DNA of 64,000 nucleotides from a virus (lineage: Duplodnaviria > Caudoviricetes): IMG/VR virus record IMGVR_UViG_3300025018_000091; one strand, given 5' to 3'. Of the stretch, positions 13,881-47,367 are shown piece by piece. Position numbers and translations under genes: made by a program. The notes beneath the pieces were generated by a model. That model saw only the letters and a program-made list of their open reading frames with translations. It was not told the DNA's origin and made no database searches. How positions within the stretch are numbered: position 1 is the stretch's first letter; the number at the start of each line of letters is the position of its first letter.

Positions 13881-13903
13881 TTGCCCCGCTCACTCGATGG
13901 GGC
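13881..13903 (-). promoter_or_regulatory. GCCCC-N13-GGGGC element, copy 1
   Basis: TTGCCCCGCTCACTCGATGGGGC on + strand; intergenic. Confidence 0.75.
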
Positions 13904-13915
13904 GCGATGGTTGCC

Positions 13916-14401
13916 TCACGCAATCATTTTTATATTTTCTTCGGCATAATCGTATATCAATATTCTGCCGTTTTTATCCATTCCTACTTGAGGACCATCA
14001 TTTAGCTCATTAGCCCAATCAGGAATCATCTCATATAGATCCTCGTCAAATGATTCATCCATTGGAGTAACGGCTCGCATCATTAATACATTCTCCTTCA
14101 CTAATCTACAAGGAGCATAATGACCACGACTATTAATATAGATATATCTCTCACGCTTATTGGATAGAATGCCCAATTCAACATATGCTATTTTGAGAAC
14201 TACATTTCCCCTTCGCCAAACACGACGGTCTTTTCCAGATGACAAGAAAATCCACCCTTGAGTTTCAAGGATGTTTTCTAGCTTTAGAGCTTGCATATAC
14301 CATTTATCATAGAAAATAGTTCTCATGGCACCATGTAAATTAATTTTCTTAGCAATGCTAAATAAAATTCCTTTAAGTTTTGTTAGCGTATTTGTTGGCA
14401 A
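13916..14401 (-). CDS. small protein-kinase-like protein
   Basis: SSGKDRRVW, VVLKIA, N..E, terminal IYDY resemble kinase subdomains. Confidence 0.45.
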   Translation of the reverse strand: MPTNTLTKLKGILFSIAKKINLHGAMRTIFYDKWYMQALKLENILETQGWIFLSSGKDRRVWRRGNVVLKIAYVELGILSNKRERYIYINSRGHYAPCRLVKENVLMMRAVTPMDESFDEDLYEMIPDWANELNDGPQVGMDKNGRILIYDYAEENIKMIA

Positions 14402-14774
14402 GTCTTACTCCCATGTAGCTTACCTCTTCCTTTTCAACCTTTTCTTTTTTATCTTTGGTCTTTGTAATTAGAATCTGATGACCAGAGTCAAATCCAATAT
14501 TGAATCGGTAAACCCAGAATGGATCAACTCCAAGATAATCACAAACTATCTTGAGCCAACCTTCTTGAAATCCATTGCGGACCAAATCTTCTCTGCCCAT
14601 TTTCAAAAGCACGGCACCAATAGCATCGCATGATACTGGATAGTCTGCCATATGGCACCTATATGCCGAGTCTCGAATACACCAATCGAATACGGCTCCA
14701 CCACGATTGATTCGCAAGCCGCAACTCTTGGCATAGATTAGAGCTTCTTCAATTAGAGATTCTGTTTGACCCAT
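14373..14774 (-). CDS. hypothetical protein
   Basis: track ORF. Confidence 0.7.
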   Translation of the reverse strand: MGQTESLIEEALIYAKSCGLRINRGGAVFDWCIRDSAYRCHMADYPVSCDAIGAVLLKMGREDLVRNGFQEGWLKIVCDYLGVDPFWVYRFNIGFDSGHQILITKTKDKKEKVEKEEVSYMGVRLANKYANKT

Positions 14775-14783
14775 AGTTTTCCT

Positions 14784-15206
14784 TTAGTCAGAAGAGTCGT
14801 AAGACATTATATACTTACACTTGGTGCATTCGCTAACATGATAGCAATGACCAAAATGAGAAATGCCCCTCGAATTACATTCTTTTTGATCCAAACTACG
14901 ATATTCATGTTTGCAACCAAAAGCAAAGTATTCAACCTTGCCCTGCCAGTAATCGGAATGCATAGCAATTCCGGTTCCATCATCAAACCAGAACATATGC
15001 AGCGTAATCATCTTGCCCCTGCGATTGGGAGTCAAGTCATCTTTGCTGGTTACATATGCCTGACGATATTCTGTAGCCTTTGGGCTATAGGTAAAGAACT
15101 GACTGGTGGCAAATTCTTTTTCAGAAATTCGACGCAGCCCAGTAGGCGGATCATTGAAGTCCGTTCCATCAGGAGACTTATCTGAAGTGTGGATTATTTT
15201 ATTCAT
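14784..15206 (-). CDS. hypothetical protein with C-terminal Zn ribbon
   Basis: CKH..ECN..CYH..ECTKC. Confidence 0.7.
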   Translation of the reverse strand: MNKIIHTSDKSPDGTDFNDPPTGLRRISEKEFATSQFFTYSPKATEYRQAYVTSKDDLTPNRRGKMITLHMFWFDDGTGIAMHSDYWQGKVEYFAFGCKHEYRSLDQKECNSRGISHFGHCYHVSECTKCKYIMSYDSSD

Positions 15207-15507
15207 TTTTGTCTAATCTCCTAAATTAATAGGCTAATGATTAATGATAATCGGTTTTGTTTTAATTAGATTCGAAAACTAATTACAACTCAAATTGAGG
15301 CGAGTTGCCTGCCTAAGTTGAAAGGATAGCTCGCAGTCGGTTACAACCACCAACATCATACAGTGTATACCCAGTGATGAATCGCGTAGGTGCCTTTACC
15401 GCTTGACTACTCATTATATTACCAGCAGCCCTTTAATTGTCCACCTAAACCATTCCAGCTACCCTAGCGCCATACTATTGATATGTAATCTCAAGTATAG
15501 CCATCAT

Positions 15508-16248
15508 TCATTCAGGACATGAATCCACTACATGTGCAGGATGTCCCATACTAACTAATATGTCAACTGTATATTGACAATCAGTCATACTCGTTGTTGC
15601 TAAGCAATTGCATTTTGTACCTGATTGCTCAGAATGATAGCAACACAAGTATGTTCCATCACAAGATGTAAGCTCTCCTGTTGCGGAATTACAAACTTGA
15701 TTCACAGTACACATACAAGCCCCACTTGATAGTTCTTCACAACACCAAGTGCCATTGCAGATGTTTTGCTGACACTGAATCGGACAGATACTGGTAACTT
15801 GCCACGTCCCAGAACTATCACAGAACTCTACATCACGATCCAAACACCTCTCATCACCAGGGTTACATTCTCCTGTGCAAATACCATCCTCACAAAGATA
15901 CTCACACTCTGGTTTTGTCTGCAACTCACCGTTTCCATTACAGAAAACGGGAGTTTTTCCTTGGCAAGAAAGTTCGCCAGGAACACAACCAGAAGTATCT
16001 TCCACTGAAGATTCAACAACATCCTCTGTGGAAGATTCAACAACATCCTTTGTGGAAGTCTCAGTTACATCAGGGACATCGACAACATCAGGAACAGATG
16101 TTTCAACAGAAGATTCAACATCCACATCAGCAGCAGCATCTGATGCATCTGGGACATTTACATCCGGGGAAGTTTCACTGTTCGTGAAATCACTTCCTCC
16201 ACATGATACCAACCCAGCAACCATGAATAGCAAGAATATTTTTTTCAT
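15508..16248 (-). CDS. Cys-rich lipoprotein with Ser/Thr/Asp/Val linker
   Basis: LVSC lipobox; PDVNVPDASDAAAD linker with DNA repeats; duplicated C-x-PG-x-C Cys modules. Confidence 0.8.
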   Translation of the reverse strand: MKKIFLLFMVAGLVSCGGSDFTNSETSPDVNVPDASDAAADVDVESSVETSVPDVVDVPDVTETSTKDVVESSTEDVVESSVEDTSGCVPGELSCQGKTPVFCNGNGELQTKPECEYLCEDGICTGECNPGDERCLDRDVEFCDSSGTWQVTSICPIQCQQNICNGTWCCEELSSGACMCTVNQVCNSATGELTSCDGTYLCCYHSEQSGTKCNCLATTSMTDCQYTVDILVSMGHPAHVVDSCPE

Positions 16249-16249
16249 T

Positions 16250-16468
16250 TCAACTCCCTGGTGGTTTACAAATGTTTGGGAACATAAGTCTAAAGCGCCT
16301 TAATTCTTCTTCTTTTTGTTCACATAACAACTTGTATTTAACCATTTTATTATTTAGTTTTCTAACATCTTTTTTCAAGGAATCAAGTTTAGACCTAACA
16401 TCCTCTAGATCTGCTTTATATTCAGTTAGTTCTTCTTCTAACTTTTCTTCTGTCGTCGTAGGCGTCAT
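16250..16468 (-). CDS. coiled-coil protein
   Basis: heptad-like charged sequence. Confidence 0.6.
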   Translation of the reverse strand: MTPTTTEEKLEEELTEYKADLEDVRSKLDSLKKDVRKLNNKMVKYKLLCEQKEEELRRFRLMFPNICKPPGS

Positions 16469-16626
16469 ATTAATTCCTTTCCTAAGAATAAGGTTTTAGG
16501 CGACCCCAGCATATAGCTGGAACCGCCCTAAAGAGGATAACCTTAAACCCCTACCCATCGAAGGCACCACCAATTTTTTGATTAGAAATTGGAAACTAGC
16601 TTTGCGCCAACATTGTTGGCAAATCT

Positions 16627-16908
16627 TCAGACGTTGCGAAGAAAGTTTGCAACCGAACCATCTTCAACCATTTGATTGTAAAGGCGCAAGCCTTCATCAG
16701 TCGCAGCAATTTCCTTCACAGTCTCATACCCACGACCAACTTCAATCTCAACCAACTCGCCCTCTTCCCAAACATTCTGTGTGTAGATTTTTTCACGAGT
16801 CTTTACAACAATACGATTCAATTTCTCTCCAGGCTTACTAAGTTTGCCAGTTACCATACAATAATACATTTTATTCTCCTTTAGATCTGGTAATAATATG
16901 TTATACAT
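16627..16908 (-). CDS. hypothetical protein
   Basis: track ORF; start uncertain. Confidence 0.65.
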   Translation of the reverse strand: MYNILLPDLKENKMYYCMVTGKLSKPGEKLNRIVVKTREKIYTQNVWEEGELVEIEVGRGYETVKEIAATDEGLRLYNQMVEDGSVANFLRNV

Positions 16909-16940
16909 TATAACAACACACTATATAACCAAAGTTTATC

Positions 16941-17888
16941 ATGAACGATACTATCAAATTATGTAAAAAATGTGGTTTAGAAAAACCATCCACCAATGAT
17001 TATTTTAGTTTATGCTGGAATAGAAAGGACGGATTCTATCCATATTGTAAGGATTGCGTAAATAAACGCAATAGAGAACGCCACAAAAATGGCAATATAA
17101 CATATAAAACTAAAATTAAAAAACAACGACTCGCATTGATTTCACGCAATCAAGAATATATATTTGGTTATTTGTCCCAAAAAAGCTGCATTGATTGCGG
17201 CGAAAATCGTTTAGGGGTTTTAGAGTTTGATCATGTAAGGGGTGAAAAGAAATATAGTTTATGCGAGATGGCTCATAATTCTATATCACTTAAAAAAATA
17301 ATAGAAGAAATATCTAAATGTGAGGTCAGATGTGCAAATTGTCATCGTTTAAAAACTAATAATCAATTCGGCTATTTACGAAATATTTTTGAAATACATG
17401 AACAAAACCAATCTATTCAATTACAAAACACACACAAATGGGATGATAAAATTTCATCTAGATATTGGAAACATGTTAATATACACCCAAATGATAACGC
17501 TTGCTGGGATTGGATTGGTGCCAAAAATGGCAAGAATATAGGCACGTTCAGGCTAAGTGAATATGATGGAACAATATTAGCTCACAGATTTTCATACGAA
17601 ATAACATTTGGATCCATACCAGATGGATACCTAATATCTCATACGTGTACTAATAATTTATGTGTTAATCCTAAACATTTGGTTCTTAGTACAAGGAGTG
17701 ATAATGCCAAATTACGTGAATTAAAACGCGGTAAACGTTTAAATTCAAAAACTAAACTAACAATCCATCAAATTAAAGAAATAAGAAAGTCTACAAAAAC
17801 TGCTAGTGCATTAGCTCGTGAATATAAGGTATCCAGGGGAACTATACGTAATGTACAAAATCATACTTATTTTAAATACATTACTTAA
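16941..17888 (+). CDS. tandem HNH / His-Me finger endonuclease with C-terminal HTH
   Basis: CIDCG..LEFDHV..CEVRCANCH and CWDW..AHRFSY..HTCTNNLCVNPKHL. Confidence 0.85.
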   Translation: MNDTIKLCKKCGLEKPSTNDYFSLCWNRKDGFYPYCKDCVNKRNRERHKNGNITYKTKIKKQRLALISRNQEYIFGYLSQKSCIDCGENRLGVLEFDHVRGEKKYSLCEMAHNSISLKKIIEEISKCEVRCANCHRLKTNNQFGYLRNIFEIHEQNQSIQLQNTHKWDDKISSRYWKHVNIHPNDNACWDWIGAKNGKNIGTFRLSEYDGTILAHRFSYEITFGSIPDGYLISHTCTNNLCVNPKHLVLSTRSDNAKLRELKRGKRLNSKTKLTIHQIKEIRKSTKTASALAREYKVSRGTIRNVQNHTYFKYIT

Positions 17889-17907
17889 GTTCTTTTTAAC
17901 CTTCCTT

Positions 17908-19270: not shown

Positions 19271-19353
19271 GTTTTTCTCCCATTTATTATCTCCGGTAAT
19301 TATACTGATATTATTACCGGCATATGTTTGTATGAATACACTGAGGTTATCTT

Positions 19354-20692: not shown

Positions 20693-20700
20693 TAGAAAAC

Positions 20701-20922: not shown

Positions 20923-20925
20923 AAC

Positions 20926-21135
20926 TTAATCAACCTCCTCAAATTGATGTCTTGCGTCATATTCATCTACATCCCAACCGCAAGATTCTATGAAAGATTC
21001 TATCTTTAAAAGAAACTCATCAAGAGTTTCATTCTTTTGAAGACCTTCTGAATAGAATTTTTCAACCTGAAGTTCCACTACTGAATAAGGAATTTTAGAA
21101 GCCATTGCTGCGTTCCTTAAAATCTCTTTCAGCAT
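20926..21135 (-). CDS. hypothetical protein
   Basis: 3' part of track ORF, start MLKEIL. Confidence 0.55.
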   Translation of the reverse strand: MLKEILRNAAMASKIPYSVVELQVEKFYSEGLQKNETLDEFLLKIESFIESCGWDVDEYDARHQFEEVD

Positions 21136-21340
21136 CTTCTTTCTTGCTAAAATAATGTCCCCAATAAAAAGACTCATGAATAAAAGTCTCAAGGTCTTCC
21201 AACTTCATATTTTCCATGTGAGTTACATTTGCCTGATATTCATCAGGCAAATGTCGCATAACCACTCGATGAGGTTTTGTTCCATCAACAACCTTTACAG
21301 CCGTTCCGTAAAGCACAGTCTCTTCATTCTTGATTTTCAT
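21095..21340 (-). CDS. hypothetical protein
   Basis: track ORF; contains YWGHYF; downstream of the element at 21395. Confidence 0.7.
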   Translation of the reverse strand: MKIKNEETVLYGTAVKVVDGTKPHRVVMRHLPDEYQANVTHMENMKLEDLETFIHESFYWGHYFSKKEDAERDFKERSNGF

Positions 21341-21394
21341 TATTAAATCCTTTCGACTATGTTTTCGTTTTCCGTCGTCCCTACAACATACGGC

Positions 21395-21417
21395 TTGCCC
21401 CGCTCACTCGATGGGGC
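21395..21417 (-). promoter_or_regulatory. GCCCC-N13-GGGGC element, copy 2
   Basis: identical 23-mer to copy 1; intergenic. Confidence 0.75.
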
Positions 21418-27255: not shown

Positions 27256-27639
27256 TCAACAACCCATTCTACGTTCAGACGCTCGTTCAGCAGCATAGTT
27301 ATATTCATTTTCTTGATATTCAAGATACCTATCATAGACTTCTTTTTGCTCCGTAGTCAGAATGCTTTCATTTACTACCGGAACAACACGCAAGCCTTTG
27401 CATTCATAGCAAGTAACATCATACTTACCACTCATATAATTAGCGGCGAAATCATTATCCTCTTGACAAGCCTCTTGCCATTCAGAATATGTGAATCCAC
27501 CACCATCACATTCAATGTTAGGATTCACATGTTTGCCTTCGCCACCACAACAATCACATACTTCGAATTTTGCCGGAAGAGAATACTCAACCTCTTCCCC
27601 ATCATCATCTTCAATGACGAAGGTAATGTCATTAGGCAT
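27256..27639 (-). CDS. DnaJ-type Zn-finger protein
   Basis: CDCCGGEG and CYECKG. Confidence 0.75.
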   Translation of the reverse strand: MPNDITFVIEDDDGEEVEYSLPAKFEVCDCCGGEGKHVNPNIECDGGGFTYSEWQEACQEDNDFAANYMSGKYDVTCYECKGLRVVPVVNESILTTEQKEVYDRYLEYQENEYNYAAERASERRMGC

Positions 27640-27678
27640 CTTGTTTCTCCTCATTGAGTGTTGCTTACATCTACAGGC

Positions 27679-27701
27679 TTGCCCCGGTCACCCGATGGGA
27701 C
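27679..27701 (-). promoter_or_regulatory. GCCCC-N13-GGGGC element, copy 3
   Basis: TTGCCCCGGTCACCCGATGGGAC; 40 nt before ATG 27639. Confidence 0.7.
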
Positions 27702-31307: not shown

Positions 31308-32219
31308 CTAAACCTCCGTAGGATCGTTTGTTCCACATCTCCAACAAGGTGTTTCACCCATATTCAAACGAGTGCCACAAACCTTGCATTGAGAATCGTT
31401 TGCATTGATAATTACATTCAACAATGCTTTTGTTTCTTCGTGGAAAGCAACAACTTCATCTTTCTCTTCAATCTCCTCTTCATCTTCATCCTCAGACTCA
31501 TCATCCTCAGATACATTCAAAAGATGCTCCTCATCTTTGTGAACGAATACACTCCAATGGGAGTCGAATTGCTCAACAGAATCAATGTTGAATAGGAACC
31601 TACTGATTCCCTTCCCTCTCAATTCTTTGGCAATATCCGCCGGATCATCATGCTGACCAGGATACCAACCAGATGCATACAAATCTTCATTGATTCGAAT
31701 GTATCCATAATTGGAAGGATCAATCTCGTCCATGGTATTCGCAATATTCTCGTTATCTTCTAGCTCCTCAAGATAATTTTCAGGATCCTCCTGAAGACAA
31801 TCAATGCAAGTATATCCACAGCCCTGTTCAGAATAGAAGTAGCTGGGAGTCCAATGATAGGAGTCAGCTTTATGACGGACTAGCTTTCCACAATCAGAAC
31901 ACGAAATCCATTCATCAGACCACTCACACTCAATACCCATCTTCTCAAACAAGTCTGCAATTCTCCTAGGAAGATCCGATACATGTGTGGTTTGTTTTGT
32001 CTGCCAGTCATACGAGTCAATCTTATTCCAGTTACCCGTAGCCACAAGTCCAGAATCGCCAGCATCATAACCAGGCTCAGCATATCTCTCATAGTGAAGC
32101 TGAATCTCTTCGATTCGATTCTCCACATTAGTGCTAATGTTTGAAGCCATGCTTGCAGCAATCTCTAAGATTCGCTCAGCACGCCTTGCTATATTATGTT
32201 GTCTTTCGTCGCTATTCAT
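31308..32219 (-). CDS. acidic protein with internal Zn finger and CW-x-CG Zn-ribbon tail
   Basis: EWSDEWISCSDC; ends CKVCG..GETPCWRCG. Confidence 0.8.
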   Translation of the reverse strand: MNSDERQHNIARRAERILEIAASMASNISTNVENRIEEIQLHYERYAEPGYDAGDSGLVATGNWNKIDSYDWQTKQTTHVSDLPRRIADLFEKMGIECEWSDEWISCSDCGKLVRHKADSYHWTPSYFYSEQGCGYTCIDCLQEDPENYLEELEDNENIANTMDEIDPSNYGYIRINEDLYASGWYPGQHDDPADIAKELRGKGISRFLFNIDSVEQFDSHWSVFVHKDEEHLLNVSEDDESEDEDEEEIEEKDEVVAFHEETKALLNVIINANDSQCKVCGTRLNMGETPCWRCGTNDPTEV

Positions 32220-32229
32220 GCTAACACCC

Positions 32230-32252
32230 TTGCCCCGGTTACTCGATGGGGC
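32230..32252 (-). promoter_or_regulatory. GCCCC-N13-GGGGC element, copy 4
   Basis: TTGCCCCGGTTACTCGATGGGGC. Confidence 0.7.
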
Positions 32253-35850: not shown

Positions 35851-36387
35851 TTATTCGTAATGCGGTCGCGGCGTTCGTTCGCCCGGATGTTCCTCAACTA
35901 CAATCATGATATCTATACCACCAAGCACAGAATAGATGTTTCCTTCTCGTCGCTCACCATAGATCGATTCCAAATGAGCCTTGAACGTTTCCACCTGTGA
36001 TTGATCAACCGCTTCCAAGTGGTATCCCCACTTGCACAACTCGTACTTCTCTCCAGTCTCATGGTAAACTACACCCTCACGAGCACAAGAACAATTATGA
36101 CAATAGTCCTTATGCCCCTCAACCGAAATTGCCTTGACCGGAATGGATGCAATCGGCTCGTGATGATTGAACCACCAACCACCCTCCTCCGGTCCACCAT
36201 AATGACGAGTCACCTCATAAGCATTCACATACAACAATGCCTCAGAACCAGGCTTCACGTAATCATCTGGTGGACATTCACATTCACCATCCTCATCAGG
36301 AATTGCTCCACAACAAGAACAACCATGATAGTATGATGCCAATCCTTGATCCAAATCGCCCTGTTCGTCGTAACATTGATTACACAT
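35851..36387 (-). CDS. hypothetical protein with Cys clusters
   Basis: YVNAYEVTRHYGGPEEGGWWF. Confidence 0.75.
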   Translation of the reverse strand: MCNQCYDEQGDLDQGLASYYHGCSCCGAIPDEDGECECPPDDYVKPGSEALLYVNAYEVTRHYGGPEEGGWWFNHHEPIASIPVKAISVEGHKDYCHNCSCAREGVVYHETGEKYELCKWGYHLEAVDQSQVETFKAHLESIYGERREGNIYSVLGGIDIMIVVEEHPGERTPRPHYE

Positions 36388-36428
36388 GATTGACTCTCCA
36401 ATCCGTTATCGTTGCTGTACCTACTACC

Positions 36429-36451
36429 TTGCCCCCCTCACTCGATGGGGC
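36429..36451 (-). promoter_or_regulatory. GCCCC-N13-GGGGC element, copy 5
   Basis: TTGCCCCCCTCACTCGATGGGGC. Confidence 0.7.
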
Positions 36452-39294: not shown

Positions 39295-39681
39295 TCAGCT
39301 TGCGGGCTTGGGCTCGGGCTGGTCTGCCCAACGGCAAACTCCACCACCCTTTCCCTTCCCGATATGGAAGGGAGCACCCGAATCGCGCTCGCCAGCACGA
39401 TCCCGAATGTAAGCCTGGACCTTTTCGGTCAAGGTCTTGAAGTTCTCGGGCTGAACATTCATGCGCTGAACCGCCATGCTGGTGATGGCAGGCATATTCA
39501 GCTTTGCCCCAGGGTATTGGTCGAAGACTGCATTGACAGCTTCTCCCACAGCTTCAGCTTCCAATTCCCTTTCGGTCTGGAAACGAAGCAGATCCCCGGA
39601 GAACTTTCGCTCGGTTCCTTCGAGATCGATGGAACCATCGGGATTCCGAACACAGTAGCTTTGCAGATTGATGGTCGTCAT
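39295..39681 (-). CDS. putative winged-helix protein, paralog of 42997..43356
   Basis: CVRN.DGSI..AV.AVFD..KGKGGGV; GGAGG RBS. Confidence 0.8.
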   Translation of the reverse strand: MTTINLQSYCVRNPDGSIDLEGTERKFSGDLLRFQTERELEAEAVGEAVNAVFDQYPGAKLNMPAITSMAVQRMNVQPENFKTLTEKVQAYIRDRAGERDSGAPFHIGKGKGGGVCRWADQPEPKPAS

Positions 39682-39778
39682 GATGACACCTCCCACGGAA
39701 TGAATCCTTGGCGCTTATCATGCTGAGAATCGACACAATTCGATTGCCATTGACTCGCGCCGTGTTGTACTACTTGGC

Positions 39779-40109
39779 TTGCCCCCGTCACCTGATGGGG
39801 TACCGCTTTCCGTTCCCAGCGAAACAACATCGTTTCGCATCGAATCGCGGCAACCAACATCGCCTCCCTTGCCCCGGTCACCTGATGGGGTAGGTCAGTT
39901 CCGCTCACAGCGGAAAACAACAGGGTTACGTTCGCAGCGGAATCCGTCATTCCGTTCCCGCTGCAACGCGCCGTCCTACAAGGGCATAATTGCCCCCGTC
40001 ACCTGATGGGACAGGCATTCCGTTCCCAGCGGAACGTTGCCTCCCCGTCGCCGTTCGTTGCTGCGTCGCATCGAACACAACCTACCTTGCCCCGGTCACC
40101 TGATGGGGC
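39779..40109 (-). promoter_or_regulatory. four tandem GCCCC-N13-GGGGC elements (39779, 39869, 39990, 40087; copies 6-9)
   Basis: 23-mers TTGCCCC(C/G)GTCACCTGATGGG(G/A)(C/T); three are preceded by a CGCTG.GA.CGGAA motif. Confidence 0.8.
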
Positions 40110-40117: not shown

Positions 40118-40324
40118 TGGCACGATCCTTGCTACGCACGTCGCGCGCGCGCAGATCATGAGGTATCCCGATCTTGGCACGCTTGCATATTGCGAGAATC
40201 ATGCCATAACCTTTTGACCCTACGTATAGCGGCACATAATGTCACGCCACATATGGTCAATCCCCGGCTTGCGGCTCGTCGTCGCATGGTGGCACGATTG
40301 TCGCACCTTGCAATCGGCGTGCCA
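40118..40324. promoter_or_regulatory. cluster of sigma54-type GG-N10-GC motifs (40118+, 40191..40206-, 40290+, 40309..40324-)
   Basis: e.g. TGGCACGATCCTTGCT, TGGCACGCCGATTGCA. Confidence 0.6.
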
Positions 40325-40508
40325 GCGCTCGCCGAAAGCCAAAAAACCCATATCCCCAAAAGTCCAGAATTAGAGAGAATCTGGAACCCCTGGAAGGATA
40401 GAGGGGATGGGTAAATGCGGGCGGGGTAAAATTCCGCTCCCACTGGACGTGGGAGCGGATGCACAGAACGTGCTCTGAAAGCAGACATGGGGAATGAATG
40501 CTAAAAAC

Positions 40509-40703
40509 TTAGCTGATATGCAGCGTGTGAATCATTCGGCGCAATTGAATTCGTTCCATTCGCGCACGTCGAGCTTCACCGATTCCCCTTTCCTCGCACA
40601 AGGCTAGGAATTGGAACCCTCGTTCAGCTTCAATGCGCTCCCGACGTGCAGATTCACTCATTGATGAGAATGCAGAACCCCTTTCAGAAGTTTTCGAATC
40701 CAT
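40509..40703 (-). CDS. small basic protein
   Basis: track ORF. Confidence 0.45.
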   Translation of the reverse strand: MDSKTSERGSAFSSMSESARRERIEAERGFQFLALCEERGIGEARRARMERIQLRRMIHTLHIS

Positions 40704-40716
40704 CTGAATGGCTCCT

Positions 40717-41055
40717 TCAGATCATGGTCTTGAGTCGGAAAGCGTCAGCCCACAAGGCTTGCGTATCAGGATATGCACGATACCGCGAGCGACCGATTCT
40801 TTCGATGATTCCCTCATCTACCAACTTCTTGAGAGCGCCTCGAATGTCGCCCACTGAATAGAGCGAACCCAAACGCTTGTTCAAGTGTTCGGTCAAGTCA
40901 GAATCTTCCACGCCTTCATCGAATCGGCAAACTCCCCGAACGACCAAGGCACAACGATGCGCCATTCCATGGACAATTGTCGTTCGATCCGGTTCTGCGT
41001 AGACTTTGGTATCGTGTGTGTTGTAGGTTGTTTTCCTGCGAAACCTCATGTGCAT
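40717..41055 (-). CDS. winged-helix DNA-binding protein
   Basis: DIRGALKKLVDEGIIERIGRSRY; GGAG RBS. Confidence 0.65.
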   Translation of the reverse strand: MHMRFRRKTTYNTHDTKVYAEPDRTTIVHGMAHRCALVVRGVCRFDEGVEDSDLTEHLNKRLGSLYSVGDIRGALKKLVDEGIIERIGRSRYRAYPDTQALWADAFRLKTMI

Positions 41056-41086
41056 TCTCCTTGTTTCGAGTCAAGCTCTTTGGATG

Positions 41087-41503
41087 TTACAGTCTTGGCG
41101 TATACAAGAGCACGTTACTGCCCTCGTAAAACTCCTTCGCCTCTTTCAAACTACTACCCGTCAATTCGCGAACCTTCTTGATTGCGTTGATTCGATTGTC
41201 TGGAAACTCCTCTTTCAGAATCTGACGAATCTGATGATAAGAGGAATATCGCCTTTCGGAATAATCCCTCCCCATTACGAATAGACGCATGATCTCATTC
41301 TCCACTTGAGGCGAAAGATCCGGGGGAGAAAACGAATTCTTTTGCACAGGAGGAATCTTCGCGGTTTTCTTGAAGATCTCCAATTCCTGTTCAAGCTTCT
41401 TCAGATCATCCGTGGCAATAATCAGAGCACAATTCAAGGATGTATTCTCACGAATGAGATCATCCAAGTAAGACAATGGTACAGAAACTTTCACATCTTT
41501 CAT
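41087..41503 (-). CDS. coiled coil fused to ribosomal bL12 C-terminal-like domain
   Basis: NRINAIKKVRELTGSSLKEAKEFYE; GGAGG RBS. Confidence 0.75.
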   Translation of the reverse strand: MKDVKVSVPLSYLDDLIRENTSLNCALIIATDDLKKLEQELEIFKKTAKIPPVQKNSFSPPDLSPQVENEIMRLFVMGRDYSERRYSSYHQIRQILKEEFPDNRINAIKKVRELTGSSLKEAKEFYEGSNVLLYTPRL

Positions 41504-41644
41504 TCAATCCTCCCATCCATGACTTTTGTACTTCAATCTCGTAGGTGGAACCCGTCCATAGATCCATTCGTAGACTATTGCTAGACATACCAATGGACCT
41601 ATGACGAATATTGTGAGGAGAAGGTCAATTCTCTTGATCGTCAT
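41504..41644 (-). CDS. small membrane protein
   Basis: LLLTIFVIGPLVCLAIV; GGAG RBS. Confidence 0.55.
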   Translation of the reverse strand: MTIKRIDLLLTIFVIGPLVCLAIVYEWIYGRVPPTRLKYKSHGWED

Positions 41645-41819
41645 GCTCTCCCCAATCTTCCTCCATCCATTCGTTCTTGTTCCTGGGCGCCTTGTACTTC
41701 TTGGAATTGATCCTTGCCCCTCTGAGAGCTTCCCCCTTCGCTTGAAGGATTGCAAGCGTATTGCGTTCACGCTTGCGGGGGATCGTCAGGGTGAAGTGGA
41801 TTCCCTTTTTGCTTCCCAT
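41625..41819 (-). CDS. small basic protein
   Basis: GAGG before MGSKK. Confidence 0.5.
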   Translation of the reverse strand: MGSKKGIHFTLTIPRKRERNTLAILQAKGEALRGARINSKKYKAPRNKNEWMEEDWGEHDDQEN

Positions 41820-41958
41820 TGTCTTCCTCATAGTGGGTCAGATTCTTATTGATCTTATTCCCACAATCTGAACAGGTGTATCCGTAATCTGTTTTGACCA
41901 TACGCCTCATGCTATCACACACAAGGCAATATGGTCGCCAATCAGGTGAATGTGTCAC
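41767..41958 (-). CDS. small Zn-ribbon protein
   Basis: WRPYCLVC..CSDCG. Confidence 0.65.
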   Translation of the reverse strand: MTHSPDWRPYCLVCDSMRRMVKTDYGYTCSDCGNKINKNLTHYEEDNGKQKGNPLHPDDPPQA

Positions 41959-41963
41959 GGGGT

Positions 41964-42149
41964 TTAGTTCAAGGTTGTGTTCGGATTCGTAGCTAGTTGC
42001 TTCTGAAGATTCGACATCTTCTCAAGAACCAACTCGTAACACTTCTTGAGCAAGTATGCTGCATCCTCATCCGTGGGAGGAGGAGTAATCGCACCAGTCT
42101 TGACCAGAATGCCAGCAACGATAACAGCAGCAGCCATGAGAGGATCCAT
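41964..42149 (-). CDS. hypothetical protein
   Basis: GGAG RBS; directly downstream of element copy 10. Confidence 0.7.
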   Translation of the reverse strand: MDPLMAAAVIVAGILVKTGAITPPPTDEDAAYLLKKCYELVLEKMSNLQKQLATNPNTTLN

Positions 42150-42187
42150 CGTTTTCTCCGTTGTTTGTTTGCGTTACACACATTGGT

Positions 42188-42210
42188 TTGCCCCGCTCAC
42201 TCGATGGGGC
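42188..42210 (-). promoter_or_regulatory. GCCCC-N13-GGGGC element, copy 10
   Basis: identical to copy 1. Confidence 0.75.
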
Positions 42211-42282
42211 ATCGTTATACAGTCTCAGCGGAACTCGTATGATGGCACACGGAATGCAACGTGCAAACGGTGTACCACTCAG

Positions 42283-42357
42283 AGGAATGGTCAGGAATCG
42301 AACCTGCGTTGCCACTTACTCCCCCAATCCTATCACAGATCGAGGAATATCCATTCC
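42283..42357 (-). ncRNA. tRNA-like element (acceptor and T-arm only)
   Basis: GGAATGG/CCATTCC, CAGG-TTCGATT-CCTG; tRNA length but no canonical D or anticodon arm. Confidence 0.4.
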
Positions 42358-42375
42358 CGCCCTAGGGCTTAAGCT

Positions 42376-42579
42376 TCACTTCACAGATACAACCACACCG
42401 TCCTTAACTGTGACTGTGGCATACCACTTGTGTGGTTCGGGATAATGTGGACCTTCCACATATTCCGTCCCATTGTCCTTGGGCGTCCCAATACCGGGAG
42501 AATACAACCGCACTTGTTCTCCATTCTTGACCGCTTCCTTGAGAGCCCTTTTGGACTTGAAGTTTTTGGTGGTATACAT
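42376..42579 (-). CDS. small conserved phage-type protein
   Basis: NFKSKRALKEAV..GPHYPEPHKWYA. Confidence 0.75.
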   Translation of the reverse strand: MYTTKNFKSKRALKEAVKNGEQVRLYSPGIGTPKDNGTEYVEGPHYPEPHKWYATVTVKDGVVVSVK

Positions 42580-42583
42580 ATGG

Positions 42584-42790
42584 TCATTCTTCTCCGCAGC
42601 CGTAGTTGTAGCTTACTCCGTTGGGGCGAGAGATCAATCCCTCTTGCTCCAATGCCTTTTCGAGACGTGCCTTCTTGGAATTGAGAGCGCGCAATTGTCG
42701 CTTGGCATTGCGGATTGCATTCAACTCCCGTCGAATGGCACGAATCTCTTTTTTGGTATCGCTAATCTGTCCGTAAACTTCGCTCCACAT
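42584..42790 (-). CDS. coiled-coil protein
   Basis: KKEIRAIRRELNAIRNAKRQLRAL. Confidence 0.65.
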   Translation of the reverse strand: MWSEVYGQISDTKKEIRAIRRELNAIRNAKRQLRALNSKKARLEKALEQEGLISRPNGVSYNYGCGEE

Positions 42791-42996
42791 GTTCCGTTCC
42801 TCCATGTTTTGGGTGCATTCAAGGTTGCACCTAACCCGGCAGCCATGTGCAGGAGTCGAACCTACCTTACGCAACTTCCGTATAGCCGATCCTTGCTATA
42901 TGGAGTTAACGTACGCTTGTCACCATCGACACAAGGCATAATAGGGCAGTTTTAGAACTTACCCCAGGTTCCATCCCACTCACCACCCAGAAAGTC

Positions 42997-43356
42997 TTAC
43001 TTCTTCTCGGGCACGTCCCGCAGACGCACCACACCGCCACCCTTTCCCTTCGAAACCTTGAATTCGTTGTTGGTTCGAATCCACAGACCCACCGCCTTCT
43101 GGGTCTCGACGAATTCGGAGGGACCGATTCCCATCAGACCACACGCTGCGGAACAGATGTGGGGCATGGGAAGGGTTGCGCCAAGGTGCGCATCGAACAC
43201 GGCGTGAACCGCTTCCGAGATTGCACCCAAGGATTCGGCTTCCTTCTGAGCCAATTCCAGCAATTGGTCCTCGACCTCGAAAAGCGTCGCTTGGACATTG
43301 ATGGAGCCATCGTCGTTGCGGACACAAGTGCTGCTGAGATTGCTGATCTTTTCCAT
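42997..43356 (-). CDS. putative winged-helix protein, paralog of 39295..39681
   Basis: CVRNDDGSI..KGKGGGV; AGGAG RBS. Confidence 0.8.
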   Translation of the reverse strand: MEKISNLSSTCVRNDDGSINVQATLFEVEDQLLELAQKEAESLGAISEAVHAVFDAHLGATLPMPHICSAACGLMGIGPSEFVETQKAVGLWIRTNNEFKVSKGKGGGVVRLRDVPEKK

Positions 43357-43441
43357 GGCTTTTCTCCTTACACGTACAGTGGGGCAGTTTATTGACATTG
43401 TACCCCAGGTCGTTATTGTTTCGCTCGTTACATTGACTGGC

Positions 43442-43464
43442 TTGCCCCGGTCACCTGATGGGGC
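43442..43464 (-). promoter_or_regulatory. GCCCC-N13-GGGGC element, copy 11
   Basis: TTGCCCCGGTCACCTGATGGGGC. Confidence 0.75.
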
Positions 43465-43470
43465 AAGCTC

Positions 43471-44070
43471 TCATCCGTGAGAGAACGTTGACTTGCTTTG
43501 CTTCGCCTTGACACCGAATCCCAACTTCGATTGTCCAGGCTTGTTGGTCTTGTGAATCGCCATACGAGCAGGCTTCAGAATACGAGCAAGGGAATCGTCG
43601 CGATTCACGAATTCGTAATGAACCCCACGGTGAAACACTTCCCCGAAACAATCCGAGGATTGCTCGAACAAGCGCCGATCACACCACTCGCTCGCACGTT
43701 GGGGAAGGTCGAAGTTTTGCTTGACTTCCTTGCCCTTTTCGTCCAGAAGGATGTTTCCAGACCCGTCGCGAATGACGGCGGAAAAAGGCTTCTTGGACTG
43801 TGAAGGCTTCGATGCATTCTCGATTGACTCTTTCGCCTTCAAGAGATCCACGAGCATGATATGCCCCATGACCGCTTGTTTCAATTCAGTCAATGCGGGA
43901 GTCGGCATGACTTCCCCGGCGTCCACCTTTTGAAGGATTGGAGCCGTGACGTAGGAGACTTCACTGGTCAGAAGATACTCCCGATAAGCTTCGAAGAAAG
44001 CGATGGCGGAAACCTTCGCGCTATTCGCCTTCTGCAACAGACCTTTCGGTCCCATCTTGCGCTCAGCCAT
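43471..44070 (-). CDS. hypothetical protein
   Basis: GGAG RBS; 199 aa. Confidence 0.8.
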   Translation of the reverse strand: MAERKMGPKGLLQKANSAKVSAIAFFEAYREYLLTSEVSYVTAPILQKVDAGEVMPTPALTELKQAVMGHIMLVDLLKAKESIENASKPSQSKKPFSAVIRDGSGNILLDEKGKEVKQNFDLPQRASEWCDRRLFEQSSDCFGEVFHRGVHYEFVNRDDSLARILKPARMAIHKTNKPGQSKLGFGVKAKQSKSTFSHG

Positions 44071-44107
44071 TGTTCTACTCCGTTGTTCGTTCGTTGTACC
44101 GCTTGGG

Positions 44108-44130
44108 TTGCCCCGGTCACCTGATGGGGC
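44108..44130 (-). promoter_or_regulatory. GCCCC-N13-GGGGC element, copy 12
   Basis: TTGCCCCGGTCACCTGATGGGGC. Confidence 0.75.
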
Positions 44131-44135
44131 AGGTC

Positions 44136-44318
44136 CTACTTGCTGCCGAACAGCATTCCGGTGATCATCACCATGGCGCTAGCGCCAACCGATCCCCAGA
44201 ATGAGATTCCGTTATGCAAGTATTGTGCCACTTGAGGAAACTGTGGCACAAGAAAGAAGTTTACCGCACAGAAGATGCAAGCCGCCAACATAACCCACAT
44301 GACAAGTAGCTTCCACAT
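44136..44318 (-). CDS. two-helix membrane protein
   Basis: two hydrophobic segments; GGAG RBS. Confidence 0.7.
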   Translation of the reverse strand: MWKLLVMWVMLAACIFCAVNFFLVPQFPQVAQYLHNGISFWGSVGASAMVMITGMLFGSK

Positions 44319-44355
44319 TGTGTTGTCTCCGTTGTTGTTCGCTACACCCATTGTC

Positions 44356-44494
44356 TTGCCCCGGTCACCTGATGGGGCAGCCCGTTCCGTTGACGGTGGA
44401 ATCGCTGTCGTTCCGTTCGCAGCAGAATCGCTGTTGTTCGCTGCGTGCTGTCCGTCGTAACGTTGCCTACCTTGCCCCGGTCACCTGATGGGGC
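44356..44494 (-). promoter_or_regulatory. two GCCCC-N13-GGGGC elements (44356, 44472; copies 13-14)
   Basis: exact 23-mers. Confidence 0.75.
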
Positions 44495-44524
44495 TCGTGA
44501 CGAACGCGCGTCGCGCGTAGGGGA

Positions 44525-44794
44525 TTGGCACGCTTGCATATTGCGAGAATCATGCCAAACCCGTTTGACTATATGTTGCCTTATATATAATGTATGGTCA
44601 TTGAAAGTTGGCACGCTTGCAGATTGCAACGGGCATGCCAAGTCATATATTCCATATTTTATGGTTTTCCTTGGTTTTAGAGGTATGGCAAGTTCGGGCG
44701 GTATAAACTTTATTCCATGTTTTATGCAAACTTGGAATCGTCAAGGGAAGCGGTCATGTTGGCATGTTCGTCGCACCTTGCAAACCGCATGCCA
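44525..44794. promoter_or_regulatory. cluster of sigma54-type motifs (44542..44557-, 44625..44640-, 44760+, 44779..44794-)
   Basis: TGGCATGATTCTCGCA, TGGCATGCCCGTTGCA, TGGCATGCGGTTTGCA. Confidence 0.6.
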
Positions 44795-45136
44795 TATCCG
44801 GTAAAAAGACACGCGAAAACCCGGCACTCCTCCCCGAAGGGATAGAGCGCCAGGCTTCGCAACTTCAGTTCACATCGTTCACATCGTTCACTTACTTTTT
44901 TTATCGACTTATACATTTAATTCTACGCGGGCTCAACCCGTTCGCACAGTTTTCGCCACATTGACTCATAATCTGCTCTTTTCTCAGGGTTAGAGAACCT
45001 GCGGTATGGTCGTGTGATGCGCCAACGCACGAGCTTAGCGACTTGCCGATGGCTCATACCATCGGTGCGATGAGAGAATTGGCAAGCCTCAGAAGGTTCT
45101 TAGGCGTTGCCCCCTTCAGCTTGCCAACAGTCAGAT

Positions 45137-45490
45137 TCACAGGAACCAACCTTCCAACTTGCGCTCCAACGCAAGATTGTTCAATGCCTCGGTTGTGCGG
45201 AGAAGAGACTTCTTCTCCGCTGTGTACTCTTCTCCCACCGTGAAGTTGAGACCCTTCATCAGTGCAATATCGACTTCGCGCTGAGTTACCTCTTCGTGGA
45301 CCTGGCGCTCCTCGATCTTGCGCAACAGATCCTTGGCTTCAGTCGCACGTAGCTTTGCACCCAAGAGAACGTCTTGGGCTTTCTCGAATGCCTTGCGGGC
45401 GTTATCCGCAGACACACGAGCCAACTTCTCATCTTCGACGGCTTCGACACAAGCCGCCTTCAACCCTTCAAGTGTCGCCTTGAGTTGCAT
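45137..45490 (-). CDS. coiled-coil protein
   Basis: GGAG before MQLKAT. Confidence 0.7.
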   Translation of the reverse strand: MQLKATLEGLKAACVEAVEDEKLARVSADNARKAFEKAQDVLLGAKLRATEAKDLLRKIEERQVHEEVTQREVDIALMKGLNFTVGEEYTAEKKSLLRTTEALNNLALERKLEGWFL

Positions 45491-45776
45491 ATCGTTTCTC
45501 CGTTTCATGCACACTGGTTTGCCCGGTCTTGAGAACCAAGGCAGAGAGAAACTCCCTGCCCGTAATCAAGCCTTCGAGGTATTGATCAACCTCAAAGTGT
45601 CCCGCATAATGCAGGACAGCCCGTTCGACATGAGGCTTGAGAATCTCAGCCTCAGTCTTATAATAGAGGGAGTGCGGGTCGCACTTATCCCAGGAAGGAG
45701 TTTCCCTAATCAGAGTCAAAGCGGCTTCCGACGCCTTGATCCGAGCCTCCTCCAGAATACCAGCCAATGAACCCAT
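45468..45776 (-). CDS. hypothetical protein
   Basis: GGAGG before MGSLAG. Confidence 0.7.
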   Translation of the reverse strand: MGSLAGILEEARIKASEAALTLIRETPSWDKCDPHSLYYKTEAEILKPHVERAVLHYAGHFEVDQYLEGLITGREFLSALVLKTGQTSVHETEKRYATQGDT

Positions 45777-45804
45777 TGTCTTTCCTCCGTTGTTGACCAC
45801 TATC

Positions 45805-45827
45805 TTGCCCCAGTTACTCGATGGGGC
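45805..45827 (-). promoter_or_regulatory. GCCCC-N13-GGGGC element, copy 15
   Basis: TTGCCCCAGTTACTCGATGGGGC. Confidence 0.7.
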
Positions 45828-45837
45828 GATTTTACAG

Positions 45838-45942
45838 TCAGAACAGAAACCCAACAATTGCGTGGGCAGTCAGCCAGCAAAAGGCTAGCGTGACTCCCAC
45901 GCCTAAAACAACACCCAAAGGCGATTCAGACTCAGACATCAT
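45838..45942 (-). CDS. 34-aa membrane peptide
   Basis: single hydrophobic helix between two elements. Confidence 0.5.
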   Translation of the reverse strand: MMSESESPLGVVLGVGVTLAFCWLTAHAIVGFLF

Positions 45943-45962
45943 TGCACCTTTCACATACCGGC

Positions 45963-46073
45963 TTGCCCCAGTTACTCGATGGGGCAAACTCATTCCGTCC
46001 GCAGCGTAACCATCATCGTCTCCGCTGCGTCGCATCGAACACAACCTACCTTGCCCCGCTTACTTGATGGGGC
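45963..46073 (-). promoter_or_regulatory. two GCCCC-N13-GGGGC elements (45963, 46051; copies 16-17)
   Basis: 23-mers; flank shared with 40060..40109. Confidence 0.7.
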
Positions 46074-46102
46074 GCGACACGCTTTTATGGGCGGTCTGTT
46101 GT

Positions 46103-46305
46103 TGGCTTAACTCTTGCTCCTTGCAATTAGCATGCCATGATGGGTGCGGGCGATTTGGGGCATCGCCGCGCGCCCATCTTGGCACGGCACGTTTGCACAT
46201 TGCGACGACCATGCCACATGCACAGGACAGCACAATTATTGTGTGAGCGTATTATTGTGTGAGTGGAATGACTTGGCACGCTTGCTTATTGCAAGACACG
46301 CGCCA
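46103..46305. promoter_or_regulatory. cluster of sigma54-type motifs (46103+, 46122..46137-, 46201..46216-, 46290..46305-)
   Basis: TGGCATGCTAATTGCA, TGGCGCGTGTCTTGCA. Confidence 0.6.
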
Positions 46306-46381
46306 ACAGGACGACAGACGCAAAAAAAATCCGCTTCCCGGTGGGAAGCGGACGAAGGGGCGGAACCCGCCCCTGCTGTTG

Positions 46382-47296
46382 TTATTCCAGGTATTCCAGG
46401 ATTTCCGTCGTGTCGTCGGCGGCAGATTCCGCCAAGAGGCGAGCAAGCTCAGCCTCCCGATCCGCCTCAGACACATTCGCCAACGGAGCGGATTCAACCG
46501 GGGCGGAATTCTTCTCGGCTTCGTTCGCCAGCGCCTTGCGGCACCGCGCACGCCGCTCGTCCATCGTGGACGGATCCAGTGTGAGCGGGCGAAACGTTTC
46601 GCCCGGCTCGTTGACTGGCACACCGCTTGCATTGACTTCCGCGCCACCGAACGTTCCGTTATGGAACGCAATGACCGTTTCCGTCGTAAGCTCGCTGTTT
46701 CCAGCGTCACGGTAACGACGCGCAAGCGCGCCGACATCGCAGGATTCCACCTCGGACAGAATCTGCTCTGCGAGGTACAGCTTGACCGACGCCATCGCCC
46801 GCTCCGTGATCGCCATCTCTGCCAGCAATTCCTTTTCTTCCATGTTTCCCGCCAAGTGAGACTTGCGTTCCAGTGTCGCTGCAAGTTTTCCGTGCTCGTC
46901 GGATTCCTCCACCATGGCACTGGCTCGTGCAATTCCCGAGCCAATCATCTTGCGAATCTCATGATCCGCACCAGCCGCACCTGGCACGAATCCTGCAACG
47001 CCAGCGTAGCGCTCACCGCGCCACACCACGAATCCGCTGGCATCGGATCCGGTGTTGCCCTTGATAGGGGCGGTTCCGCTGGGGGCGGAAACGGTCGCCG
47101 TGGGCGTTGCAGTGGGGGCGGACTTCGCGGACTTCGCGGCTTTCGCAGATTCCTTGGCTGCCCGCTTGGCAGCCTTTTCCGCCGCTTTCGCGGCTTTCGC
47201 GGCTTCCGCGGCTTCCAGGTTCTCATCGTGTTGCGCCATATGCTTGGCTTGCGCAGCGAGCATTGCGTTCAGGGCGGAAAGGGCGACGTTCGACAT
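46382..47296 (-). CDS. Ala/Lys-rich N-terminus, acidic C-terminus; first gene of the leftward unit
   Basis: AAKAAKAAEKAAKRAAKE repeats; downstream of element copy 18. Confidence 0.75.
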   Translation of the reverse strand: MSNVALSALNAMLAAQAKHMAQHDENLEAAEAAKAAKAAEKAAKRAAKESAKAAKSAKSAPTATPTATVSAPSGTAPIKGNTGSDASGFVVWRGERYAGVAGFVPGAAGADHEIRKMIGSGIARASAMVEESDEHGKLAATLERKSHLAGNMEEKELLAEMAITERAMASVKLYLAEQILSEVESCDVGALARRYRDAGNSELTTETVIAFHNGTFGGAEVNASGVPVNEPGETFRPLTLDPSTMDERRARCRKALANEAEKNSAPVESAPLANVSEADREAELARLLAESAADDTTEILEYLE

Positions 47297-47344
47297 GTTT
47301 TTTTCTTTCGGCTGGGAGAAAAAATTTTTGGTGTACTAGCTGGC

Positions 47345-47367
47345 TTACCCCCCTTACTTGATGGGGC
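47345..47367 (-). promoter_or_regulatory. GCCCC-N13-GGGG(T) element, copy 18
   Basis: TTACCCCCCTTACTTGATGGGGC. Confidence 0.65.

Follow-up and report, generated by a model that had tools for sequence, protein, structure and literature searches.

A single-orientation sequence element as a candidate class-specific DNA promoter in a family of huge phages

The stretch of DNA considered here (64,000 nt, hereafter the window) belongs to the IMG/VR virus record IMGVR_UViG_3300025018_000091 (Caudoviricetes) and contains, between positions 13,881 and 47,367, a family of 23-base palindromic elements to which a first-pass annotation had drawn attention. We interpret this element, with rather better than even confidence, as a DNA-level, class-specific promoter of a family of huge phages. 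Such phages are known almost only from metagenomes, and the scheduling of their hundreds of genes is largely unknown; the element would allow one transcription class to be recognized from sequence in a family detected in hundreds of samples. The G+C content of the window is 33% at its start, rises steadily to 54% at 47 kb and then drops abruptly to ~30%, and the elements are found only within this gradient block, more densely toward its GC-rich head. The genes marked in this way appear to form a GC-rich, accessory or early-looking block with tRNAs and RNA-repair genes. Searches of the 114 minus-strand open reading frames (ORFs) of the window against Pfam and PHROGs gave matches to RNA ligase, radical SAM enzymes and bL12-like domains, along with many unknowns, and detected no sigma factor, helix-turn-helix (HTH) domain or polymerase.

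A pattern search that allowed up to three mismatches returned exactly 18 starts in the window, identical to those listed earlier, of which 13 are perfect and five have one mismatch; the mean in shuffled sequences was 0.01, and 18 was never reached. Copies with two to five mismatches were absent from both strands of the window, and the element family is sharp, without degenerate members. All copies lie on the minus strand (18:0), which is the strand of nearly all genes there, and all 18 fall outside minus-strand ORFs, i.e. they are intergenic, as the first-pass annotation had claimed of their single orientation and their placement upstream of minus-strand genes. Seven of the 18 are located 5–12 nt past the stop codon of the upstream gene, most are 24–72 nt ahead of the next start codon, and every copy stands upstream of a gene or of an array unit. 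The reported rise in density toward 47 kb was also reproduced (5 copies in 13–39 kb and 13 in 39.7–47.4 kb), and so were the stem variants (GTCCC twice, GGGGT once and ACCCC twice). The bare hexamer CCCATC contained in the element occurs 17 times on the plus and 24 times on the minus strand of the window and is unskewed, whereas the 8-mer GCCCCATC is skewed (0 versus 14), which would be expected if recognition in the clade of the window requires a longer motif.

Read in the direction of transcription, the series starts with a copy at 47332–47367, which has the downstream box TACA and heads the first gene of the block (46382–47296). A tandem group comes next, the first copy of which (46038–46073, box TGTT) is followed by a conserved GTTCGATGCGACGCAGC, and then a copy ahead of a small ORF (45950–45985) and one (45792–45827) with a Shine–Dalgarno (SD) sequence, GGAGG, from +19 and an ATG from +29, where plus signs denote positions downstream of the element. 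The first copy of a tandem pair (44459–44494, box CGTT) has no ORF directly after it, and the copy at 44343–44378 (TGTA) is ahead of a 71-aa gene (44136–44351). Three copies then precede single genes: 44095–44130 (TACA), 5 nt past the upstream stop and followed by a 199-aa gene (43471–44070); 43429–43464 (TGTA), 6 nt past the upstream stop and followed by a 133-aa gene (42997–43398); and 42175–42210 (TGTA), ahead of a 61-aa gene (41964–42149). A four-copy tandem array begins at 40074–40109 (TGTT), continues with 39977–40012 (variant GTCCC, TGTA) and 39856–39891 (variant ACCCC, TGTT), and ends at 39766–39801 (variant ACCCC, TACA), after which there is a conserved leader of ~100 nt and the gene at 39295–39696. 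More distant from the head are the copies at 36416–36451 (TACA; 5 nt past the upstream stop, then a 178-aa gene at 35851–36387), 32217–32252 (with the ATG of a 303-aa gene, 31308–32219, exactly at +11), 27666–27701 (variant GTCCC, TGTA; ahead of a 132-aa gene at 27256–27654), 21382–21417 (TGTA; ahead of an 81-aa gene at 21095–21340, with the orthologous site present in both close relatives) and 13868–13903 (TGTA; 12 nt past the upstream stop).

The same part of the window carries another kind of motif that is not part of the element. Fourteen sequences of the sigma-54-like form TGGCAY-N5-TYGCW (Y and R represent pyrimidine and purine, respectively) are found in 40118–47535 and none elsewhere in the window, several of them as dyads TGGCAYG-N18-23-CRTGCCA. 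Ten are on the minus strand, where they cluster just upstream of the tandem groups of elements, and they may constitute a second class of promoter. The GC-rich end of a more distant relative (G001, see below) contains none of them. Upstream of the first gene of the block are two such motifs and one element, and downstream of it is a strong intrinsic terminator with an 11-bp stem and a T-run (46329–46353, minus strand), which would close this gene upstream of the next group of putative promoters. The element itself does not read as a sigma-54 (-24/-12) promoter, in which GG and GC are exactly 10 nt apart: the spacing is off, and an invariant C occupies a column where GG is required.

Close relatives were obtained from an exact-pattern scan of metagenome contigs, which yielded two contig sets, Ga0172379 and Ga0114918, both syntenic with the window at 70–85% nucleotide identity. 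Together with the 18 copies of the window, 49 copies from these two relatives make up an alignment of 67 copies, in which CCCATC, T17, A19, G23 and A28 are invariant (C20, like T17 and A19, is invariant or nearly so). Beyond the element, there is almost no base preference at +6 to +8, whereas 65 of the 67 copies have a pyrimidine at +10 and every copy has a purine at +11. The box claimed exactly 9 nt downstream is indeed present as TGTA in seven window copies (13881, 21395, 27679, 39990, 42188, 43442 and 44356) and as TACA in four (36429, 39779, 44108 and 47345). Since the pyrimidine–purine step also holds in the array copies, whose box is TGTT or CGTT, the box is part of the element and not of the leader of the downstream gene. 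Judging from the alignment, G-T-R-(Y-A) is a more fitting description of it, in which Y occupies +10 and R occupies +11, and a step at such a fixed distance looks like a transcription start or a short -10-like block. In a few copies an ATG, or the first G of GGAGG, is found exactly at +11, which would fit a start at this position, and such ATGs could also be read as led by the 3′ AAGG of the element.

The palindrome had been considered as a possible hairpin, either recognized by an N4-like polymerase or acting in an RNA leader, and this part of the earlier proposal is not supported. Although a hairpin with a 5-bp stem and an 11-nt loop can be drawn, the CCCC of the 5′ arm is unchanged in all copies while the 3′ G-run varies (GTGG, GGAG, GGGGTAAA) without a compensating change, and the five proposed pairs have 82.4% paired cells compared with 82.4% in column shuffles, i.e. 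no excess covariation. At least 12 copies contain uncompensated internal mismatches, some of them at conserved orthologous sites, such as the mismatched copy with a good box at the head of the first gene in the relative L033. The palindrome is real in the sequence, but because covariation is lacking, variants are uncompensated, the loop would be 11 nt long and the palindrome is missing from other clades, a hairpin, whether of DNA or RNA, is not supported.

Megablast of 39–48 kb against a phage collection and a search of IMG/VR for the exact element motif gave no match, tblastn with two window proteins gave only remote matches, and an Rfam scan of the window reported tRNAs only, with no match for the element at E values up to 1. 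A literature search returned no work dealing with this motif, with GC gradients of huge phages or with phage promoters of the sigma-54 type. When the RNA ligase of the window was used as a query, two IMG/VR contigs of 340–361 kb were detected at 57–60% identity, and the longer of them (G001, 361 kb, 97% complete) was examined as a whole.

The gene strand of G001 contains 46 copies of CCCATCGGTCAAC-N9-TATAAGTGAG, and the opposite strand contains no copy; they are confined to the GC-rich end of the genome and lack both the G-run and the palindrome. Fourteen of the 46 are located 16–29 nt past hairpin-plus-T-run terminators and ahead of ribosome-binding sites (RBSs), compared with 3.6% of control positions, and in the gap between terminator and gene the element is the only conserved sequence. 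Since these copies follow intrinsic terminators, transcription must restart there, and a promoter is needed. The second block includes a near-consensus TATAAG/TAnGTG 16–18 nt past CCCATC. At 348488–348639 of G001, four tandem copies of the 13-mer CCCATCGGTCAAC are spaced 46–56 nt apart, mostly without a downstream TATAAGTGAG, and tandem arrays are thus present in a distant clade as well. An exact 14-nt scan of IMG/VR for the G001 motif gave almost only single chance matches. A third clade, represented by G004, has 15 copies of CCCATCATGAAAC-N15-GTGAG, again on one strand only and without the palindrome.

The distant relatives share a common plan with the window, namely CCCATC-N5-AC, then 14–16 nt, then GTR, on a single strand; the distance from the 13-mer to GTR is 14 nt in G001, 15 nt in G004 and 16 nt in the window. 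Such a range is within the spacing tolerance typical of sigma-70-family promoters. By comparison with these clades, the window 23-mer consists of the upstream block and the initial half of a G-rich spacer, and the palindrome probably results from a chance complementarity between this spacer and the C-run of the core in the clade of the window. The palindrome that had suggested a hairpin signal is therefore not the conserved feature.

Two further relatives have CCCATC alone, with flanks that are not conserved: G003 (IMGVR_UViG_3300036715_004471, complete, 446,541 bp) and G002 (433 kb, in which hexamers were counted over 55 kb, 235–290 kb). The whole G003 genome has 352 copies of CCCATC on the gene strand and 4 on the opposite strand, compared with averages of 47 and 70 for hexamers of equal composition; the counts for the 55 kb of G002 are 172 versus 3. 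The density in G003 peaks at the GC-rich head (up to 81 per 10 kb) and declines with distance, and between 140 and 290 kb the hexamer is absent from both strands over 150 kb that encode DNA polymerase III alpha, DnaB, primase, RecA, a baseplate protein, tubulin and glycan genes. In both genomes it is found in coding DNA, in all three frames, as well as in spacers, and spacings below 50 nt are rare; many G003 hexamers abut a stop codon, ~12 nt ahead of the SD sequence and ~21–25 nt ahead of the ATG. That the reverse orientation has been purged, and in the region of replication and structural genes both orientations, argues for a directional signal read in DNA and against an RNA motif; a misplaced CCCATC would be harmful, as a misplaced promoter would be. 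Skew and avoidance in these genomes are at least as extreme as in any oriented signal known to us (Chi, FtsK-orienting polar sequences (KOPS), T7 promoters).

In every family member examined, the block that bears CCCATC is also the block with the GC gradient, which was observed in G001 (300–361 kb, toward one end of the genome), G003 (1–127 kb, up to 62%) and G002 (245–290 kb) in addition to the window (1–48000). G+C rises opposite to the direction of transcription and ends at an abrupt border. One idea is that the genes nearest the head use host-like GC-rich codons, with later genes relying on the phage's own tRNAs. The link between CCCATC and the gradient may bear on the expression or uptake of very long phage genomes.

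To find a candidate reader, G001 was compared with Pfam models of multisubunit polymerase beta and beta′ subunits, without a match, and with PF00940 (T7-type polymerase), for which there was also no match, although control genomes gave none either. It does encode a 209-aa sigma-70-family protein composed of regions 2 and 4 only (TIGR02937, 58.9 bits, above the cut-off; L051:1159–1788, minus strand; also L199 and L200), and a gene of this family was seen in G001 through G004. The protein has 736 metagenomic homologs, all of ~209 aa and 67–95% identity, on contigs of up to 491 kb, and its gene looks like a hallmark of this huge-phage family. The gene is located between a DnaB-like helicase, accompanied by small zinc-ribbon genes, and ribonucleotide reductase, and is preceded by the host-type promoter TTGACA-N16-TACATT. 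The most economical reader that we infer would be the host core polymerase together with this sigma factor or with another phage factor.

These observations can be combined into a model in which the 23-nt element and the box 10–13 nt later would form one DNA signal of ~36 bp. Its upstream recognition block, (G)CCCCATC-RR-GT-R-AC, would have a -35-like role and would be followed by a G-rich 16-nt spacer, N-GGGG-CAAG-N8, and by the downstream block G-T-R-(Y-A), whose Y-R step (+10/+11) could be a -10-like core or the start site itself. Transcription would begin between about +11 and +20 and produce short purine-rich leaders with GGAG ribosome-binding sites, and the enzyme would be host core RNA polymerase directed by a phage specificity factor, for which the 209-aa protein is the best candidate. 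The model predicts that the host core polymerase, with this sigma or another phage factor, initiates 11–20 nt past the element. The GCCCC/GGGGC palindrome would be a by-product of the G-rich spacer adjoining the C-run of the core and not a functionally required hairpin. The anatomy, orientation and placement of the element, its conservation throughout the family and its lack of pairing constraint are seen directly in the sequences, whereas promoter activity, start position and reading factor are what we infer. The placement after terminators, the second block at a fixed distance and the avoidance of the core all support a DNA promoter. Of the original suggestion of a phage-class promoter, possibly read by a phage sigma factor, the promoter part is thus favored by orientation and placement, the fixed Y-R step, the two-block motif after terminators in relatives and core avoidance, and only the hairpin part is disfavored.

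Several points weigh against this interpretation. Hairpin-plus-T-run terminators were found upstream of none of the 18 window elements, plain hairpins being present upstream of 11 of the 18 compared with 24% of controls. Thirteen of the 18 copies are downstream of sigma-54-like clusters and could be inside the leaders of longer transcripts, and it is mainly because some copies may sit in such leaders that our confidence is only somewhat above even. In a few copies (32230 in the window and copies in L005 and L028) an RBS or ATG is located at +1 to +11, which would agree with a start at +11 only if the mRNA were leaderless or began with the SD sequence, and disagrees with one at about +18. Tandem arrays of two to four copies without an intervening gene would be unusual for promoters, conservation of ~40 bits over 36 bp exceeds what is usual for sigma-dependent promoters, and the connection between the sigma factor and the element is circumstantial, as the same sigma could read AT-rich motifs upstream of other genes. 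Finally, a two-block model of the sigma type fails to explain the relatives with a bare hexamer that is common inside genes; a six-base signal every 130–190 nt within genes would not be what such a promoter predicts.

The last point leads to a broader view, possible but in our opinion doubtful, in which a large family of huge phages would share a polar genome signal that is so far undescribed, with CCCATC as its core, and not just another sigma-type promoter. The bare hexamer, present once per 130–190 nt near a GC-rich genome end, would then be the whole signal in some members and the window 23-mer a lineage-specific elaboration. An unrecognized transcription machinery, e.g. one that drives or accompanies the entry of a very long genome, might use such a signal as a minimal site for starting or loading; alternatively, it could be a non-transcriptional tracking signal.

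A promoter with a different geometry is an unlikely alternative. In this arrangement CCCATC itself would be a -10-like element, with a start ~6–8 nt further on, within the 23-mer and close to its invariant T-R-A-C, and the G-run, CAAG and TRYA box would be a conserved 5′ leader. The hexamer is the only part common to all clades and the sole conserved signal in G003 and G002, its distance from the stop codon, SD and ATG in G003 leaves room only for a -10-type role, T17, A19 and C20 are invariant or nearly so, and CCCATC resembles the -10 sequence of sigma-32 promoters, CCCCATnT. However, the second block (GTR or GTGAG) is kept at 14–16 nt in three clades, for which a leader has less reason, and in G001 it has the near-consensus TATAAG/TAnGTG at the distance given above. 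There is also no conserved -35 upstream of CCCATC; a sigma-32-like promoter with a -35 was rejected on this ground and survives only in the -10-type form.

We consider a directional role in DNA that does not involve promoter activity similarly unlikely. The element could then be the operator of a repressor roadblock comparable with the stoperators of mycobacteriophage L5, or a site at which a machine moving along the DNA from the GC-rich end is loaded or recognizes its path (Chi-like, translocase-guiding or nicking). The single orientation and a density that in the window, G001 and G003 decreases away from the GC-rich head would be consistent with such a role, as would the occurrence of the G003 and G002 hexamer in non-coding DNA and in all three frames of coding DNA, rarely at spacings below 50 nt, and the position of the window tandem arrays downstream of sigma-54-like promoters. 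L5 stoperators are likewise asymmetric, intergenic and in a single orientation. On the other hand, a roadblock between a terminator and an RBS, where the G001 elements are located, would be pointless and a promoter is needed; the invariant Y-R step and the second block at a fixed distance are not accounted for; a Chi-like signal would not explain why the opposite orientation is purged or why both are missing from 150 kb; and no repressor-like HTH protein is present among the 114 window ORFs.

Less probable still is an RNA hairpin in polycistronic leaders, i.e. a nut/boxB-like antitermination signal, a processing site, a 5′ stabilizer or a protein-binding site. RNA structure prediction allows the element to form a G-C stem of 5 bp, three of the five stem variants in the window are G-U compatible on the sense strand, 13 copies are downstream of sigma-54-like motifs, and in some copies the 3′ end of the element is, or abuts, the RBS, so that those must be transcribed; neighboring array hairpins do show G-U pairs and one compensatory change. 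These features have to be set against the absence of covariation, the at least 12 copies with uncompensated internal mismatches (including the first-gene head in L033), the 11-nt loop, the lack of a palindrome in G001 and G004, the position of G001 elements after strong terminators, the avoidance of the reverse-complement hexamer in the mRNA-sense DNA of G003, which is unexpected for an RNA signal, and the lack of an Rfam family match. A lambda-type nut site in particular was rejected, as there is no covariation, no boxA-like block in the logo, and at least 18 copies rather than one per early operon. Highly improbable is a hairpin-dependent promoter, an extruded cruciform read by an injected virion RNA polymerase as at N4 early promoters, since its palindromic G-C arms with a sequence-conserved center and its clustering at the apparent leading, early genome end are outweighed by an 11-nt loop that disfavors extrusion, by the lack of pairing constraint and of palindromes in the homologous elements of other clades, and, more weakly given that control genomes were also without a match, by the lack of a T7/N4-type polymerase domain in G001. 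Repetitive extragenic palindromic (REP) elements, integron attC sites, iterons, parS sites and solitary repeats of the clustered regularly interspaced short palindromic repeat (CRISPR) type were dismissed on orientation, size, placement and the lack of an Rfam match, and the general class of structure-conserving palindromes or CRISPR repeats on the 18:0 orientation, the same Rfam result and the lack of pairing constraint.

Compared with known systems, a class-specific promoter of this kind would be closest to phage promoters that depend on sigma factors or activators, such as those of SPO1 (gp28, gp33/34), phiEco32 (gp36) and the T4 middle promoters (MotA/AsiA), which also have many near-identical, co-oriented copies before one gene class and two blocks with fixed spacing, and to which a small phage sigma-70-family protein without a recognizable polymerase would correspond. 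Unlike these, CCCATC-N5-AC matches no -35 or activator box known to us, 36–43 bp are conserved, gene-free tandem arrays occur, and some relatives have the bare hexamer. Promoters of extracytoplasmic function (ECF, group 4) sigma factors, e.g. TGAAAC-N16-CGTA of Bacillus subtilis sigma-W, are similar in having a block ending in AAC followed by a GT block (ATGAAAC-N15-GTGAG in G004, GTAAC-N16-GTR in relatives of the window), and the candidate 209-aa sigma likewise consists of regions 2 and 4 only; however, nothing in ECF promoters corresponds to the CCCATC that precedes the AAC block, the second block is GTG/GTR instead of CGT, and the spacing is 14–16 nt. T7-group promoters are 23 bp long and occur in ~17 copies in one orientation, and share with the element a sharp, near-identical family in one direction and a T-R-Y-A/TATA-like box beside a purine, but no single-subunit polymerase domain was found in the near-complete G001 (a comparison with a weak control), and the conserved part of the element is 14–36 nt upstream of the box and not within 17 nt. 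The stoperators of L5, ~30 asymmetric 13-bp repressor sites, are comparable as many sites in short intergenic spaces with one orientation relative to transcription, and differ in that the element has a fixed-distance second block and Y-R step, that the G001 sites lie between terminators and RBSs, and that there is no repressor among the window ORFs and no sign of lysogeny. N4 early promoters (three copies, stems of 5–7 bp, loops of 3 nt) also have a palindrome with a conserved center upstream of early-looking genes, but the element has an 11-nt loop, no pairing constraint, a lineage-specific palindrome and at least 18 copies. We view the element as a probable variant of the class-specific phage promoter, unusual in its length, in the invariant family-wide CCCATC and in the extreme polarity and avoidance seen in some members.

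The tandem arrays of the window, at 39.8–40.1, 44.36–44.49 and 45.8–46.07 kb, are kept in both close relatives with varying numbers of units. The sequences between copies (39802–40109, 44379–44494 and 45986–46073; also in L022, L028, L005, L018 and L026) are conserved and non-coding, and contain GTTCGATGCRACGCAGC and then the hairpin TTCCGCT-GGG-AGCGGAA, one arm of which corresponds to the motif CGCTG.GA.CGGAA. The first-pass annotation had placed this motif, as CGCTG(G/T/C)GA(A/G)CGGAA, upstream of several copies, which holds exactly only before 39779, 39869 and 39990 and more loosely before 44356, 45963 and 47345. On the sense strand the array hairpin shows G-U pairs and one compensatory change from C-G to T-A between relatives, because of which the arrays are probably transcribed, and the units may be small RNAs of ~65–95 nt or structured leaders. 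Small ORFs in the arrays were rejected, as 2-nt indels between relatives break their frames, and so was a tRNA-like or T-arm reading of GTTCGATGC, for which a check by hand gave no T-arm fold and Rfam reported no tRNA at that site.

Within the leader of the MWKLLV gene in both close relatives (L026:657–699 and L005:428–470, orthologous to window ~44320–44345) there is a second, degenerate copy of the element, in which the G-run is mutated to GGGAG and serves as the RBS of that gene; the window has only AACGGAGACA at this position. It seems that elements undergo tandem duplication and that copies later degenerate to become part of a leader. A close relative (L039:402–820) has an insertion of ~420 nt with one element copy and a small ORF at a site (~3516–3524) where the window has neither, which suggests the gain or loss of cassettes consisting of a putative promoter and a gene. 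At the head of the block, ~750 nt without ORFs (47368–48117) separate it from a divergent metallopeptidase-like gene (48118–48834, plus strand). This segment contains A/T-rich runs, a duplicated AAAGTCTGGAGTA and inverted ATCCTAC/GTAGGAT repeats, and may be a genome end or a control region.

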